This document shows, in pieces, positions 16,559-52,557 of a stretch of 64,000 nucleotides of DNA. The DNA is from an uncultured Acidobacteriota bacterium (lineage in GTDB: Bacteria; Acidobacteriota; Vicinamibacteria; Fen-336): NCBI GenBank assembly GCA_963818355.1, contig CAWFSB010000033.1, forward strand, positions 18,266-82,265. Direction: 5' to 3'. The translations under genes and the position numbers were made by a program. How positions within the stretch are numbered: the first letter of the stretch is position 1; the number at the start of each line of letters is the position of its first letter. The notes under the pieces are model-generated. The model saw only the letters and a list, made by a program, of their open reading frames with translations. It was not told the DNA's origin and did not search any database.

Positions 16559-18893
16559 CTACCGCGGGGCGACCATCCACCTCGTGTCGCCGAAGCGGCT
16601 CGGGCTCAGGTAGGCGCCCGACTTCGCCGTCGTGCCGTCCATGTACCAGAGGTAGAGCTCGCCCGTCTTCGGGTGCTGCCAGAGGAAGTCGGGCTTGCGG
16701 TCGCCGTCGAAGTCCGACACCTGGGCCAGGCGCCACTGAGCGTTGCCCGAGGTGTAGGGGGTCAGGTAGCCGCTCGAGGCCAGGGCGAGGCCGTTCATGA
16801 GCCACGCGTAGAGCCCACCGGTCGCCTGGTTGTGCCAGATCACGTCCGGCTTGCCGTCGCCGTTGAGGTCGGCGAGGGCGCGGATCTGCCAGTTCGTGTC
16901 GGCGAAGCTCGTGAGGCCGAGCTTCACGGTCTTGCGCAGGTCGAGCCCGTCCATGAGCCAGACGTGCAGCTCCCGGGTGTCCGGGTCGCTCCACAGCAGG
17001 TCCACTCCGCCGTCGCCGTCGAAGTCGGCCGCGCCCTGGACCTCCCAGTCGGCCTCGGGCGCGGCGCGCGGCGAGAGGTACGACCCGCCGACCGCCACCG
17101 CGCGGTCGAGGAACCAGGCGAACAGCTCGCGCGTGGCGCGGTGCTGCCAGAGCACGTCGAGGCTGCCGTCGCGGTTGAAGTCGCCGAGGGCGCGGATCTG
17201 CCACTTCGGGTCGGCAAAGCTCTCGGGGCGCAGGTAGGAAGCGCCGGTCAGCACCGCGTTCTCCATGAACCACACGGAGAGGGCCCCGGTCGCCTGGTTC
17301 TGCCACAGGATGTCCGATCGCCCGTCGCCGTCGAAGTCGCTGGTGCGCGGCACCGGCCGTCCGGCGCCGATCAGGCTGGCGAGAGCGAAGGCCTCGACCG
17401 CGTGCGACGCTCCCGCCTCGAGGTCGGAAGACACCGTGGTGGTGGTGGTGGGCATCCAGTAGTAGCCGTTCCAGATCCAGCCGCGGAGGTCGTCCGAGGC
17501 GTCGTGCGCCGCCAGCTGGACGATGCCGTCCAGCTGGCGCTCCAGCTGCACCCAGTACGCAGGCTCGTCCCCGTCGACCGGCGACGAGCTGCCGAACCCG
17601 ACCCCGCCGTCCACCGAGCGCGCGGACCACAGACCCGCGGCGTCGGCGTAGACCAGCAGGACGCCGCGGGCGTTCACGATCGGGTCCCAGACGAGGTCGA
17701 ACGGGCGGTTGCGGAGCGGGTCGCCGAAAGTGCCCAGCGTGTGGAACGGCGAGACGGCCCCCCAGGTCCTCGTGGCGCCGTCGTAGGGGACGGTGGTGAG
17801 GCGGCCGGTCGAGCCGGCCGCGTCCCCGATCGCGAGGACCATGTCGTCGCTGCCGGGGTCGGCGGCGAGGCGCAGCCAGCGCACGGTGACGCCAGTGCCC
17901 ATGTCCGCGACCACGGCCGGCGTCGACCAGCCGCCCGCCGCGCGCCACCGGCTCCAGTAGACCTTCTGCCGGTTGCCCCACACCGCGACCGCCTCGCCCG
18001 CGTTCGCTCCCGCCAGGGTGAACTTCAGGTCGATCGCCTCGGTCGGGTGGTAGCTCTGGCGAAGTCGGGAAGCTCAGCACGTACTTCGAGCCCCACGTGT
18101 GGGTGTCGCCGTCCCAGATCATGGCCTCGACCGCCGCCGAGTCCTTCCCGGTGGGGTCGTTCGCGACGCCGAGGAAGCCGATCCGGTTCGTGCCGGGCAT
18201 GGGCGCGAGACGGACCCAGTCGAAGATGTTGAAGGGGTCCTGGATGTTGTTGGCCACGCCCTGCAGGAGCGTGCTGGTGTTCCAGCCGCTCGCTCCGTGC
18301 ACCCAGTACTTCACCGTCTCGTCCGTGTTCACGCCCGCCACGACCAGCAGCTCGCCGCTCTTCTGCTCGTACGCGGCGTCGAAGCCCCGGAAGTCCGAGA
18401 GCCCGTCGACCCCGACGCGGCCGAACGCCTTCGCGTCCCCGAAGGGCGCCCCCGAGCCGTCGTCCCACCTCGCCCCGTCCCAGAACGCGGCGTGAAGGGC
18501 GTCGCGGCCCGAGGGATCGTTCTCCTGGAACACCACGACCTGGCGCGCCCGGTCCGGCCGCGTGCGGGCGACCTTCCAGTGAAGCGCTCCGCCCGCGGAG
18601 GTGAACGGGCCTGCGGCCGCGATCCCCGGCGGCGCGACCCAGGCCCCCGACTGCAGCGTCGTGGCGCGGAGAGGCCGGACGCCGGAGGCCGCCGGCTCGC
18701 TGAACGCCACCAGCGGCGGAAGAGGAGGAGGCAGGGCGGGCGAAGAGGATCTGTGGGGGGGGCGTGGCCTTCGCCGAGGCCCGTGGAGCGACGGACCGAC
18801 CACGCCGAGACCGGCGCGGCGGCGCCGGTCAACAGCGACACGCAAACCGCCAACCCCGCGCTGCTGACAGAAGGACCCGCGTCGCCACGTCAT
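16559..18893 (-). CDS. Secreted FG-GAP/VCBS-repeat protein (frameshifted)
   Basis: Five C-terminal DF(D/N)xDGxxDxxW-type repeats; beta-rich N-terminal region split across frames near 18050. Confidence 0.75.
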
Positions 18894-20593: not shown

Positions 20594-21352
20594 TCAGGGA
20601 CGACTTCCGCCCGCCACCTCGACCACCTGGCCGGTGACGAAGTCGGCGGCCGGCGAGGCGAAGAACAGCACGGCGCGGACCACGTCCGCGGCCCGGCCGG
20701 GGTGCCCGACGGGCACGCGGTCCCCCAGCATCGCGTCCGCCGCCGCCGCCGCCCGGCTCCCGCTCTCGTCCTTCAGGAGGCCGGGGGACACCACGTTGAC
20801 CGTGATCCCGCAGCGCGCCTCCTCGAGCGCGAGGGCCCGCGAGAGCGCGACCACCCCGGCCTTGGCCGCCGAGTAGGCCGCCATCTGCGGCTCGCCCAGC
20901 GTGGCGGCCGCCCCGACCGCCGCGAAGTTCACGATGCGCCCGAAGCGCTTCTCCCGCATGTGGGGAACCGCGAGGCGGCACATGTGGAAGACCGAGTCCA
21001 GGTTCGTGGCGACGATACGCCGCCACTCCTCGGGCTCGACCTCCACCAGGGGGTTCCAGTTGAAGCTGCCCACGGTGTTGACCAGCACGTCGATCCGGCC
21101 CCACTTCGCGAGGGCCTGCTCGACGAGCGCGCTCGCGCCCTCGGAGCCCGAGACGTCGGCGAGGACGGCGATCGCCTCGCCGCCGGCCTTCTGCACGTCG
21201 GCCGCGACGGCCTCGGCGGCCTTCGAGTCGCGGCGGCAGTTGACCACCACGCGCGCTTTCTCCGCCCCCGCGGCGCGAGCGAGAGCGGCGCCGAGGCCTC
21301 GCCCGCTGCCGGTGACCAGGAAGACCCTGCCGCGCAGGCCGTCGTCGTTCAC
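20594..21352 (-). CDS. SDR family oxidoreductase
   Basis: Motifs VTGSGRGLG, YSAAK, ITVNVVSPG, FVTGQVV. Confidence 0.9.
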   Translation of the reverse strand: MNDDGLRGRVFLVTGSGRGLGAALARAAGAEKARVVVNCRRDSKAAEAVAADVQKAGGEAIAVLADVSGSEGASALVEQALAKWGRIDVLVNTVGSFNWNPLVEVEPEEWRRIVATNLDSVFHMCRLAVPHMREKRFGRIVNFAAVGAAATLGEPQMAAYSAAKAGVVALSRALALEEARCGITVNVVSPGLLKDESGSRAAAAADAMLGDRVPVGHPGRAADVVRAVLFFASPAADFVTGQVVEVAGGSRP

Positions 21353-23339
21353 TTGCCGGTCACCCTCATCATCTCCGTGGTGGTGGTCACCCCGCGGAAG
21401 ACCTTCTCGATCGCGGCCTCCTTGAGGGTCCGCAGGCCCTCCTCGCGGGCCGCCTTGAAGATCTCGAGCGAGCCCGCCTGCTGCGAGACGAGCCGCCGGA
21501 TCTTCTCCGTCATGGGGAGGATCTCGTAGACCCCGGTCCGGCCGAGGATAGCCCGTCTCGCGGCAGTGGAGGCAGCCCTTGCCCCGCCGGAAGCGGTAGG
21601 GCTTGAGCTTCTCGAACGGGATCTTCATCGCCGCCGCCTCGGCCTCGGTCGGCGCGTACTCCTCGGGCAGTGCGGGCAGTTCTCGCGGACGAGCCGCTGC
21701 GCCACGACCCCGATGAGGGTCGAGGTGATGAGGAAGTGGGGGACCCCGAGGTCGAGGAGGCGGGTGATCGAGGACGGCGCGTCGTTCGTGTGGAGGGTCG
21801 AGAGGACGAGGTGCCCGGTGAGGGCGGCCTGGACGGCGTGGTCCGCGGTCTCGCTGTCGCGGATCTCGCCGACCATGATGATGTCGGGGTCCTGCCGCAG
21901 CACCGTGCGCAGGGTGCTGGCGAAGGTCACGTCGATCTGCGGGCGGATCTGCACCTGGTTGAAGTCCTCGAAGACCATCTCGATCGGGTCCTCGATGGTG
22001 ACGATGTTCACCTCGGGCTTCGAGAGGTGCTTGAGCACGGAGTACAGCGTCGTGGTCTTGCCGCTGCCGGTGGGGCCGGTGACGAGGATGATCCCGGTCG
22101 GGCGCCCGATGAACTCGTTGAACTTCGGCAGGTCGTGCGGGCGAGAGGCCGAGCTCGTCGATGCTCTTGAGGAGGATGTCGGGGTCGAAGATGCGGAGCA
22201 CCGCCTTCTCGCCGAAGGCGGTGGGCATGGTGCTGACCCGCAGCTCCACCTCGTTCTTCATCCAGCGGAACGGGTGGCCGTTGGTGCCGGTCAGCGCGAC
22301 CGCCCCGTCCACCGTGATCGAGGCGTTCGAGGCCTTGGCCGTGAGCTTGCGCCGCTGCTCCGTGCCGCTCCGGTCGTTCACGAGGATCGTGTCGCCCACC
22401 GAGAGCGGGGCGAAGGGATTGGTGCCCGCCTTGCACTCCACGATCGTCGCGGAGCCCCCGGCCGTCCTGACGTTCGCCGCGCCGTTCATCCACTGCTCGC
22501 GCTTGATGCGGCCGTCCTGGGGGCGGCGCTTCTCCGCGAGGTTCGCGCCGGAGAGGAGCTTGATGCGCGAGACGACGGCCTCGTAGACTCTCTTCGGGAT
22601 GACGTGCACGTCGTGCAGCACCCCGTCGATCCGCAGCCGCACCAGGGTGAGGTTGCGCTTGGGCTCGAAGTGGATGTCGGAGGCGCGCTGCTCGAAGGCG
22701 TAGGCCAGGATGTGGTCGAGGGCCTTGATCACGGGCGCGGCCGCGGGGTCGAGGTCGGTGGCGGCCTTCGAGAGGTGCTCCTGGTTGCCGAGGTCCACCG
22801 TGGCGATCCGGCTCTCGGAGAGCTGCTTCTCCGCGTGCTGGAGGCTGGACTTGAGGTCGTAGAAGCCCTTGTTCACCGCCTCGATGTCGCGCGCGGGTCG
22901 CGACCACGCAGGTCGACGTCGAGGTCCGTGGTGCGCTTGATCTCGTCGATCCAGGCGGTGGGCGCGAACGGGTCGTGCACGGCGATCGTGATGCGCTTGG
23001 CCTTCTTGTCGATGTCGATCGCCACGATGCCGTTGCTGCGGGCGAACGGGCCCGGCGATGGCCTTGGTCACGACGTCGAGGTCGAGGTCGAGCGGGTTGA
23101 TCTTGACGTAGGGCAGCCCGGCGTGCGCGGCGAGGGCCTGGGCGATCTGCGCGTCGCTCGCGACCCCGAGCTGGATGCACCGCCTGCTCGGCGGAGAGGT
23201 CGTTGACCTTCTGGGCGCGGCGGACCTTGTCCGCCTGCTCGGCGGTCAGGACGTTCTGCTTGACGAGCACGCCGAGAAGATCCAGCACCTCTTGCAGGCC
23301 GGTGGGAGGCGCGGTCTTCTTCGTCGCAGGGATGGCCAT
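21349..23339 (-). CDS. GspE/PilB-family secretion ATPase with in-frame insertion (several frameshifts)
   Basis: Motifs RASDIHFEP, RLRIDGVL, EKRRPQDGRI, Walker A GPTGSGKTTTLY, TIEDPIE, LRQDPDIIMVGEIRD, TGHLVLSTLHTN; CxxC...CxxC zinc site. Confidence 0.9.
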
Positions 23340-45040: not shown

Positions 45041-45162
45041 CGCCGTCGCCCGGCGAGACGAAGATTCCAGCAAGACAGGTCCTTGCTCGAGGCGACCGGC
45101 GTCTTCCGGTCGTGAGGCGGAAAGGCCCGACGGCGCGACCCGACGCTCTCGGCCGACGGTCG

Positions 45163-45997
45163 TCACGGCGACGGAGACGGCGTCGGCTCCAGGGGACGGG
45201 TCGCCGAGCGGCGATGCCGAGCGACGGCTTCCCGGCCGTAGTCGATCTCGGCCAGGTAGCGGTTGTGGCATTTGCACGCGAGAGCGATGTTACCGACCGA
45301 GTGGTCGCCGCCGTGGCCGAACGGGCGCCGGTGGTGGAACTCGAGCCCCTGGCGCGCCGTGCATCGTCTTCCCTGTTCGTCCTCGTAGCGGCATCGGCCT
45401 CCGTCCCGCTCGTACACGGCTCGCTTCACCGCGGCCGGGATCTGGCGCGTCGTGGGGGAGGTCTCGCTCTGCGACGAGCGTCTTCCTCGGCGTCTGGGTC
45501 TCGGCGAAGCGCCGGGCTTCGAGCCTCTGGAGCTTCTCGGTGACGGCTTGCTCGATGATCGCGCGCCAGGTCGCCGTCGGGCACCGAGGAGCGCATGAGG
45601 GCCCGCAGCCGCTCGAGCTTGTCGTCGAAGCTCGGCGGAGGCGGTGAACTGGACCTTGTAGCGGGCCGGGGCGAGGGGCTCGACCACAGCGGGCCGGGCC
45701 CGGGGAGAGGCCGGCAGCGCAGCCGCTCCCGGTCGGACACCCCGTTCGACGCACTCGCCGGCTGCCGGACTCCGTCCAGACGCAGTTCGACGCCGGCCAC
45801 GCCGCGGCTCCGTCTGGACGCAGTTGGGACTCGCGCGCAGGCACCTCCGTCCGGACGCAGTCCGACGACGAAGCGACCTCGGACGTCCGAAGGCCAGCTC
45901 GGCGTCCGGCGGAGGAATCGTCGTCCCGGCCCGGCGGTCGGGCAGCTTCCGCATCACCGCCGGAGCATCCGGACCGTGGCGTCACCGCGTGCCGCAC
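45163..45997 (-). pseudogene. HNH endonuclease gene, apparently N-terminally truncated and frameshifted
   Basis: RQIPAAVKRAVYERDGGRC..GRRC..LEFHHRRPFGHGGDHSVGNIALACKCHN; VEPLAPARYKVQFTAS; no intact N-terminal domain. Confidence 0.7.
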
Positions 45998-50925: not shown

Positions 50926-52557
50926 ATGAAGAAGGTCCTCGAGGAGAAGGAGTCCGTGCCGCGCCCGGCGGTCCCGGACACGCGTTTCACCACGATCTCG
51001 GGGCGGGCCATCGCCCCCGTCTACCGGCCACAGGACATAGCCGGTGTCGATTACGCCCGCGACCTCGGCGACCCCGGGCAGTACCCCTACACGCGCGGCA
51101 TCCACGAGACGATGTACCGCGGCCGGGTCTGGACCATGCGGCAGTTCGCCGGGTACGGCAGCGCCGCCCAGACGAACGCCCGGTTCAAGTACCTGCTCGA
51201 GCACGGCGGGGGAGGGCTCTCGGTCGCGTTCGACCTTCCGACCCTGATGGGGCGCGACCCCGACCACCCGCTCTCCCTCGGCGAGGTGGGCAAGTGCGGC
51301 GTCGCGGTGTCGTCGCTCTCGGACATGGAGACGCTCTTCGAGGGCATCCCCCTCGACCAGGTCACGACGTCGATGACCATCAACTCGCCCGCGGCCATGC
51401 TCCTCGCCTTCTACATCCTCGTGGGGGAAGAGCAGGGCGTGGGGCCGGAGAAGCTGGCCGGCACCCTGCAGGCGGACATCCTCAAGGAGTTCATCGCCCA
51501 GAAGGAGTACATCTACCCGCCGCGCCCCAGCATGCGGATCGTGGTGGACATGATCCGCTACTGCACGGAGCGGATGCCGAAGTGGAACACGATCTCGATC
51601 TCCGGGTACCACATCCGCGAGGCGGGGTCGACGGCGGCGCAGGAGCTCGCCTTCACCCTGCGCGACGGGATCGAGTACGTGCAGTGGTGCGTCGACGCCG
51701 GCCTGGACGTGGACAGCTTCGCCCCGCGCCTTTCCTTCTTCTTCAACTCGCACAGCGACTTCTTCGAGGAGATCGCGAAGTTCCGCGCGGCGCGGCGGAT
51801 CTGGGCGCGCACGATGCGGGAGCGGTTCAAGGCGAAGAACCCGCGCTCGTGGATGCTGCGCTTCCACACCCAGACGGCGGGGGTGAGCCTCACCGCGCAG
51901 CAGCCCTACAACAACGTCGTGCGCACCGCGCTCCAGGCGCTGGCCGGCGTCCTCGGCGGGACGCAGTCGCTGCACACCAACTCGCTCGACGAGGCGCTGG
52001 CGCTGCCGACCGAGGAGGCGGTGACCATCGCGCTCCGGACGCAGCAGGTGATCGCGCACGAGTCCGGGGTCGCGAACGCGGCCGACCCCCTGGGGGGCTC
52101 GTGGCTGGTCGAGCGTCTCACGAACGACATCGAGGCGGAGGCGCTCGAGTACTTCCGCAGGATCGACGAGATGGGCGGGATGGTGGTGGCGGTCGAGCGC
52201 GGCTTCCCGCAGCGCGAGATCCAGGAGTCGGCCTTCCGCTTCCAGCAGGCGGTGGAGCGCAAGGAGAAGATCATCGTGGGCGTCAACGAGCACGTGATGG
52301 AAGAGGCGCCCTTCCCGATCCTGTACATCGACGAGCAGGTGGCGGGGGAGCAGGTGGAGCGCGTGCGGGCGCTGCGCCAGCGCCGCGACCACGCGCGCGC
52401 GACGCGGGCGCTCGCCGACCTCAGGGCCGCCGCCCGCGGGACGGACAACCTCATGCCGCCCATCCTCGAGGCCTCGAGGGCCTACGCCACGGTCGGCGAG
52501 ATGTGCGACGCCCTGCGCGAGGTCTTCGGGGAGTACCAGGAACAGCCGATCTTCTAG
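50926..52557 (+). CDS. icmA: Acyl-CoA mutase large subunit with isobutyryl-CoA mutase (IcmA)-type residues
   Basis: Motifs [55 protein letters not shown]. Confidence 0.75.

Follow-up and report, generated by a model that had tools for sequence, protein, structure and literature searches.

The 64,000-nucleotide window analysed in this study, that is, the whole stretch between positions 18,266 and 82,265 of contig CAWFSB010000033.1 of an uncultured Acidobacteriota bacterium of the class Vicinamibacteria (GenBank assembly GCA_963818355.1), contains a gene for a PilB/GspE-family assembly ATPase whose N2 domain holds, at the tip of a beta-hairpin, an in-frame insert of 80 codons homologous to a barrel domain of a tailed-phage protein family. 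The explanation that best covers all the observations jointly, to which a probability of roughly 0.8 is assigned, is that a phage barrel was captured once at this hairpin tip and then inherited vertically, that the short repeat bracketing it is coincidental, that the frameshifts in this copy of the gene are errors, and that the barrel would function as an extra lobe of the motor. Hereafter, G000 denotes the genome of the window and C33 its contig (the assembly comprises 4.57 Mb in 61 contigs and is 73% complete), other G-numbers the genomes of relatives, P-numbers database proteins, L-numbers loci and X-numbers metagenome runs.

The insert occupies positions 22253 to 22492 on the minus strand, reads WMNG...GHPFRWMKN and forms an all-beta barrel nested in the N2 hairpin, in place of a GG[RK] turn. 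It lies between RRPQDGRIKREQ (22493 to 22528, minus strand), which comprises a conserved N2-domain motif and the first hairpin strand, and EVELRVSTMPT (22220 to 22252, minus strand), the returning strand. The peptide between these two landmarks, WMNGAANVRTAGGSATIVECKAGTNPFAPLSVGDTILVNDRSGTEQRRKLTAKASNASITVDGAVALTGTNGHPFRWMKN, matches the one quoted in a first-pass annotation made from the sequence of the window, and the additional in-frame stretch that this annotation had noticed between the RRPQDGRIK and EVELRVSTMPT motifs was confirmed. Indeed, the Pfam T2SSE model (PF00437) breaks at the same point: in a search of the own genome, it matched three pieces of C33 (294.5, 62.5 and 31.5 bits; cut-off 24.9) spanning model positions 5-85, 89-139 and 126-370, and the break between 85 and 89 falls exactly at the insert. 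The size proposed earlier needs correction, however, as insert-free orthologues read DGRIKR[DE]Q-GG[RK]-E[VI]ELR (DNA CAG GGN GGN CGC/AAG GAG), so that the insert, although real and in frame, consists of 80 codons replacing a three-codon GG[RK] turn and not of 76 codons plus a duplicated WM. That it is not an intein was correctly recognised: it begins with Trp and ends with Lys-Asn, and Glu follows. The insert is present in 16 database proteins, including the intact 661-residue P0003, which is 96% identical to G000 over the queried stretch (the insert and a few flanking residues). It also occupies the same site in three further genomes of the genus, reading REH-WIDG...FSWMKN in G014, REW-WVDG...FRWFKN in G004 and RER-WEAG...FKWKKKDSD in G002.

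Homology between the insert and the phage family was detected in both directions. A profile built from four inserts matched 209 proteins at E≤1e-3 among 1.84 billion; three ATPase fragments came first, followed mostly by non-ATPases of about 200-270 amino acids (aa) with the match at approximately residues 55-135, referred to here as the donor family. Long repeat proteins among the profile hits (for example P0022 with 12 stretches, P0033 and P0037) were excluded, since their matches probably reflect low complexity or repeats. Reciprocally, a hidden Markov model (HMM) of 118 donor proteins, with no ATPase among them, retrieved only the insert from the six-frame translation of the own genome (E 7.7e-28, 98.7 bits). 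When the donor profile was compared with the ATPase, only positions 52-131 matched (E 3.5e-28), and neither the jelly-roll body of the donors (profile positions of about 20-50 and 135-249) nor their signal peptide was found in the ATPase, which by these profile matches is a domain-level relative of the phage family and not one of its members. Identity to the insert reaches 55-56% for the best donors, with a median of 42% over 224 donors. The proposal that the domain is foreign is therefore upheld by a barrel that is homologous to a phage protein family and nested in the N2-domain hairpin. No free-standing donor gene was found in the own genome or in the 301 genomes of the class that were searched. 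A 159-aa open reading frame with the C-terminal half of the jelly-roll (profile 135-244) and without the barrel was observed in two genomes of another family of the class (L044, G112:C82:16475-16780; L045, G115:C2:443354-443656).

Members of the donor family, of about 250 aa (for example P0028, P0179 and P0184), have, in the sources consulted, no name beyond "hypothetical protein". Pfam scans of seven members and an NCBIfam scan of P0028 returned no family, whereas PHROGs scans of nine members yielded only phrog_15388, in the C-terminal region of P0027, and phrog_36950, weakly matched by P0030, both of unknown function; a search of PDB sequences with the donor profile gave only a chance hit (E 1.7). 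In the predicted structure of P0028 (mean predicted local distance difference test, pLDDT, 90.5), the barrel is embedded, at approximately residues 45-132, in a jelly-roll whose fold is similar to those of XepA, YomS and phage cement proteins (Z 7-8.6). Eight donor loci were located on IMG/VR contigs, and one more was found with P0184. In all three annotated loci (donor genes at L030:7956-8726, L032:7932-8723 and L050:9923-10753), the donor gene is preceded by head genes, followed by tail genes, or both: a major head protein is encoded upstream in L032 and L050, and the downstream genes encode a tail protein and a tail fibre in L030, a tail-fibre-assembly match in L050 and an internal virion protein in L032. 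The nearest Atlas clusters of the family are 89-100% viral, many of the longest contigs measure 48-66 kb and, among the members listed, no donor resides on a contig longer than 83 kb. The donor family is thus encoded by tailed phages, between the head and tail genes. Most members carry a Sec-like signal peptide, which is odd for a virion protein; some forms of about 205 aa lack it, and some of about 355-385 aa possess an extra N-terminal part. These proteins define an unannotated phage family, a jelly-roll with a nested barrel, to which the Pfam, PHROGs and NCBIfam scans of the sampled members gave no name.

Structure prediction for the 80 residues of the insert with AlphaFold2, from 19 aligned sequences, gave a confident all-beta model (pLDDT 95.6; predicted template modelling score 0.84) with five strands of at least three residues. 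The best Foldseek match in PDB was the tail tube of phage Mystique (E 5e-3) and the best in BFVD a baseplate wedge subunit (E 5.3e-4), while the highest Z score obtained with VIA-align was 7.2; the matched folds are mostly small barrels of phage tail-tube, tail-tip and tailspike proteins and the I-domain of P22. The likeness to small beta-domains of phage tail and fibre proteins suggested in the first-pass annotation is borne out in essence: the barrel is homologous in sequence to a phage virion-module barrel, and tail-tube, tail-tip and tailspike proteins rank among the best, albeit weak, fold matches. The insert alone matched only DUF4512 in Pfam (E 0.077, below the cut-off of that family) and nothing in PHROGs. 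Regarding PilZ, another small barrel that acts on PilB, no PilZ family appeared among the Pfam hits at E≤1 or in the best 50 VIA-align rows, and its motifs were not evident by eye, although a distant relation could escape these comparisons.

To establish the history of the insert, 40 relatives were searched and the fetched loci were aligned. Orthologues differ in whether they carry the insert: it is present in part of one genus, with a short turn elsewhere. The barrel profile matched 4 of the 301 genomes of the class, all four belonging to the same genus (G000, G002, G004 and G014). The same short turn, without insert, was found in three outgroups, in six other genera of the family, and in G006, G012, G007, G015 and G013. 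Paralogous ATPases of G019, G021 and G024, whose alignments run into the insert region, were discarded as candidates, having normal short hairpins. In an ATPase tree of 39 rows, computed with the insert columns removed and rooted on three outgroups of the same order, 17 of the 18 insert-bearing rows form one clade (Shimodaira-Hasegawa-like approximate likelihood ratio test, SH-aLRT, 88) nested among insert-free orthologues of the genus, and a tree of the N-terminal flank is compatible with a single insert clade. Similarly, a barrel tree (FastTree; 241 rows, 80 columns, root chosen by the analyst) that includes 224 donors groups all 17 inserts in a single clade (support 99), with P0184 and P0249 as sister group (support 87).

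As a species marker, rpoB failed, with no G000 match at E≤1e-50 and matches in 9 of the 17 genomes of the genus, and DNA identity was used instead, over 19 kb of the window that lie 18-37 kb away from the gene. Identity to this stretch was 81-87% for G014, 80-86% for G009 (whose ATPase orthologue is not assembled), 78-81% for G004, 78-82% for G008 and 76-80% for G002, an order that fits the insert-bearing species as close kin. The composition of the insert (GC content 0.70; 0.99 at third codon positions) is close to that of the rest of the gene (0.68 and 0.99). Ten residues of the insert are invariant across 19 sequences, and pairwise ratios of nonsynonymous to synonymous substitution rates (dN/dS) range from 0.39 to 0.85 in the insert and from 0.21 to 0.41 in the flanks; by these ratios, the insert is less constrained than the N2 core. 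Altogether, the alignments and trees are most economically accounted for by a single, early acquisition of a phage barrel within one genus of Vicinamibacteria and vertical inheritance afterwards, with, at most, occasional spread by homologous recombination.

Other origins for the insert were considered. The first-pass annotation had proposed a mobile mini-domain inserted with target duplication, or a module excisable between repeats, on the basis of the 8-bp word TGGATGAA (coding strand). This word was indeed confirmed on the minus strand at both ends, 228 nucleotides (nt) apart from start to start: the 5' copy (22485-22492, codons Trp-Met-Asn) lies at the junction, outside the donor-like barrel, and the 3' copy (22257-22264, codons Trp-Met-Lys) within the last strand of the barrel. 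It occurs nowhere else in the window (two occurrences against 0.26 expected; 2 of 100 shuffles reached two), and removal of one unit keeps the frame. However, any WM[NK] pair shares these eight bases, because Trp and Met have one codon each and the codons of Asn and Lys both start with AA, and the repeat tells nothing beyond the peptides WM-N and WM-K. In the five donor rows displayed, the barrel has gaps at the first three columns of the insert, while the 3' WMK strand also exists in phage relatives, as in ...GHPFTWMKQ of P0179. The word is absent from the empty sites of all eight aligned insert-free orthologues. Only two Trp codons are shared between the insert ends of the other insert-bearing genomes, in which the longest words common to both ends measure 7 (G014), 6 (G004) and 5 nt (G002) and are located elsewhere; WM stands at both ends in just 2 of the 18 insert-bearing sequences, G000 and its near-copy P0004. 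A target-site duplication is contradicted by these observations. Neither is mobility favoured: no second copy was detected in the 73% complete assembly (blastn and tblastn, no other match better than E 0.002), no inverted repeats exist at the insert ends, chance direct repeats of 11 and 10 nt occur within the same 451 bases, and the distribution fits one old gain. As for excision, the sole joint that skips the insert, from 22252 to 22493 in X1 and X2, lacks 240 nt and has the nine letters CTTGCCCCC in between, whose reverse complement, GGG GGC AAG, encodes the GGK turn of insert-free relatives that co-occur; among the joints listed from contigs of four other metagenomes, none of 228 nt was present, although contigs cannot prove absence. 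A mobile or excisable module is consequently considered highly improbable. The repeat marks neither target duplication nor excision; it is a coincidence confined to this lineage, in which codons for Trp-Met-Asn and Trp-Met-Lys happen to stand at the two ends. It is quite unlikely, too, that the barrel was ancestral to the genus or family and was lost in most lineages. Two well-separated sub-clades united at only SH-aLRT 88 and a fully ameliorated composition would agree with such antiquity, but the insert clade sits several nodes deep on the outgroup-rooted tree, with the outgroups, six other genera of the family and the five further genomes listed above insert-free and the profile limited to so few genomes of the class, and many independent precise losses would be needed, each restoring GG[RK]. 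The reverse direction, in which the barrel arose in the ATPase and was acquired by phages, draws on the fact that phages do pick up pieces of host genes and on a barrel-tree root that was not inferred; it is nevertheless very unlikely given that the donors are far more diverse and widespread (at least 258 clusters) and have that median identity of 42% to the insert, that the ATPase form is limited to part of one genus, and that the inserts make up one tight clade with two donors as sister.

Two further alternatives concern the integrity of the copy in the window. Twenty public sediment-metagenome runs (17 studies) hold 32-46% of the sampled words of G000, none of them being its source, and Logan contigs of four of these runs, from four studies, were aligned to the gene. 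Since G000 is a metagenome-assembled genome with many indel errors, a chimera at the insert could be suspected, and was contemplated in the first-pass annotation; its likelihood is practically negligible, as the same site is filled in the three other species genomes and the 16 database proteins, and contigs of the four runs bridge both junctions (X5 record 27, which spans 22203-22531 without gaps; X1 records 4 and 5; X2 record 12). Relative to orthologous DNA, the gene contains seven single-base indels that had previously been missed (minus strand; extra bases near 23176, 23053, 22910, 22890, 22138 and 21548, and a missing base near 21667), and because of them it is read in seven or more frame pieces. 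Ungapped tblastn with the intact P0003 recovered seven pieces at 90-99% identity. Seven frame-breaking indels in 2 kb might indicate a decaying pseudogene, in which the insert would be irrelevant to a working protein. This is unlikely, however: no in-frame stops occur in the true reading pieces, all seven sites are read without the indel in contigs of the four runs, and frame breaks lie elsewhere in the sister assemblies P0004 and P0005. Moreover, three other T2SSE-family genes of G000 are split across frames (contigs C22, C44 and C31), the rpoB gene of the related G014 is in three frame pieces, and the split genes, the unrecovered rpoB, the 73% completeness and the 61 contigs all fit an indel-prone long-read assembly. 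Given the absence of the indels in other runs, the different breaks of the sister assemblies, the split T2SSE genes and the unrecovered rpoB, the seven frameshifts are probably assembly errors and the organism would make an intact protein of about 661 aa. Gene calls of G000 should be read with frameshifts in mind.

Several observations weigh against a single capture followed by strict vertical descent of a functional phage barrel. The insert-bearing groups are united at only SH-aLRT 88, the N-flank tree leaves a trichotomy with the insert-free G008, and a second transfer of the insert by recombination may have taken place. P0012 is a mosaic, with most of its first 250 alignment columns 89-98% identical to the insert-free G013 and the rest, including the insert, 94-100% identical to P0015; it is either a natural recombinant that carried the insert to another lineage or an assembly chimera. 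The direction from phage to ATPase rests mainly on diversity and distribution because the root of the barrel tree was chosen by the analyst. All the structural matches are weak, with Foldseek E no better than 5e-4 and Z no higher than 7.2, a range in which a match can reflect a common arrangement. The best of the 20 runs contains 46% of the sampled words of G000, and none represents its own reads, so that the frameshifts may be real in this one population. Finally, the barrel, evolving faster than its flanks, may be a tolerated passenger without function.

The gene that harbours the insert extends from 21349 to 23339 on the minus strand in a three-frame reading, with about 661 codons once the seven indels are allowed for; it starts with MAIPATKK at 23339, and its stop codon, after MMRVTGK, is at 21349-21351. 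The indel near 22138 puts the Walker A motif of the C-terminal ATPase domain, GPTGSGKT (22054-22077, minus strand), out of frame with the insert. Two Cys pairs, NCPHC ... GCLHCRETGY (21548-21681, minus strand), are broken by the indels near 21667 and 21548 and belong to what we take to be a tetracysteine zinc-motif region. All these motifs, together with DPDIIMVGEIRD and TGHLVLSTLHTND, presumably the Walker B-like and His-box-like motifs, were located in the translated frames. A tetracysteine zinc motif is also mentioned in PMC5424180. The database protein P0001 scores 90.1 bits against PF00437. The N-terminal MshEN domain (PF05157) appears in the precomputed Pfam annotation of intact relatives such as P0003 and was found here by scanning the fragment P0019 (E 2.8e-11); it is thus documented in relatives, and the N-terminus of the G000 ATPase is 93% identical to P0003 over residues 1-54. 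PDB sequence matches to Geobacter PilB structures cover both halves of the protein (E 1e-118). P0003 scores 614.5 bits for TfpB (NF053534; cut-off 850), 533.1 for PilB (TIGR02538; cut-off 675.65) and 513 for GspE (TIGR02533; cut-off 630.25), values lowered because the insert splits each match into two stretches. As these scores are below the NCBIfam equivalog cut-offs, no equivalog name is given, and the protein is filed, from its family and motif matches, as a PilB/GspE-family, PilB/TfpB-like ATPase. In the intact relative G002, the neighbours of the ATPase gene are pheS, rplT, thrS, arginase, GH57 and sigma factor genes; platform, pilin and secretin genes are not among the neighbours at this locus, and the ATPase is an orphan.

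Elsewhere in the window, a stretch of about 840 bp (approximately 45133-45974) recurs at 76-85% identity on G000 contigs C52, C54 (twice), C35 and C53 and is found many times over in G014 and in further genomes of the genus. It probably represents either an insertion sequence or a gene in multiple copies. Another gene-sized stretch (approximately 51065-52541) has a paralogue of about 70-72% identity on another G000 contig and in most genomes of the genus, which looks like an old duplication.

According to the mechanism proposed here, the barrel would have been captured once, by traceless illegitimate recombination, in an ancestor of a sub-clade of one Vicinamibacteria genus, where it would have taken the place of the three-residue GG[RK] turn that caps the beta-hairpin downstream of the RRPQDGR motif. 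Vertical inheritance would have prevailed since then, with a base composition now like that of the host gene, and in no more than one case may homologous recombination in the conserved flanks have transferred the barrel from one allele to another. Because the barrel is nested in two different hosts, its ends are presumed to be adjacent. It would project from the hairpin tip as a solvent-exposed lobe, one per subunit and six per hexamer. McCallum et al. (2017; PMC5424180) describe that each N2 domain is packed against the C-terminal domain of the adjacent chain and that the pair moves as a unit. The lobe would then move rigidly with N2 through the ATP cycle, offering a docking or shielding surface rather than a catalytic one.

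A role in conflict between phage and host at the pilus motor is a long shot, conceivable because phage DMS3 Aqs1 acts on the N2 domain of PilB: according to a 2026 report (PMC13436744), this protein binds a solvent-exposed hydrophobic patch of N2 and destabilises the hexamer. If such a role were true, the barrel could shield or alter the N2 surface and make the motor resistant to phage-encoded pilus inhibitors, or a phage protein whose usual binding partner is the donor barrel could dock on it or be caught by it as by a decoy. Faster evolution of the insert than of its flanks would fit a conflict surface.

PilB/GspE motors are highly conserved, and their accessory domains are known mainly at the N-termini. 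The ATPase described here offers a clean natural example of capture of a phage domain by a host, with a whole foreign domain lodged in the N2 core of an essential-looking motor. A literature search, with supplements outside its range, returned no description of a domain inserted in the N2 hairpin of PilB/GspE; two hits that had seemed relevant dealt with different proteins. The hairpin tip is marked as a permissive insertion site, for instance for tags or engineered domains. In addition, this case advises caution with exact short repeats that bracket an insert, which can be a pure coincidence of codons.

In comparison with known systems, the protein shares with Geobacter PilB an MshEN-type N1 domain, an N2 domain with the RRPQDGR motif, the Walker A motif and the Cys pairs of the C-terminal domain, but the hairpin loop of six residues in Geobacter (chain 274 to 281) is replaced by about 82 residues here (query 279 to 362). 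Like inteins, the insert lies in frame in a conserved enzyme of only some lineages; unlike them, it lacks an initial Cys, Ser or Thr and a terminal His-Asn, with Glu as the next residue, and, in contrast to inteins and other selfish inserts, the barrel is kept in the mature protein family, with dN/dS below 1. Small barrels on hexameric ATPases have precedents in the "crown" barrels of F1/V1, FliI and HerA (Z of about 4.9-5.3). Those barrels are N-terminal and ring-forming, whereas the one in this study sits within an N2 hairpin, in an ATPase lineage unrelated to theirs. With the barrels of phage tail-tube, tail-tip and tailspike proteins and the I-domain of the P22 coat protein (9n71, 8vjh, 8iyk, 7w1c and 2m5s), it has in common the general small beta-barrel arrangement and the frequent role as an accessory domain of a larger protein, the likeness being at fold level only (Z 5.7-7.2, identity 10-25%). 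The donor family comes much closer, sharing the barrel domain itself at up to 56% identity and with reciprocal HMM matches; its members differ in having a jelly-roll body and, for the most part, a Sec-like signal peptide, and in the position of their genes between the head and the tail genes of phages. A further shared trait is that the barrel sits within another domain in either host.

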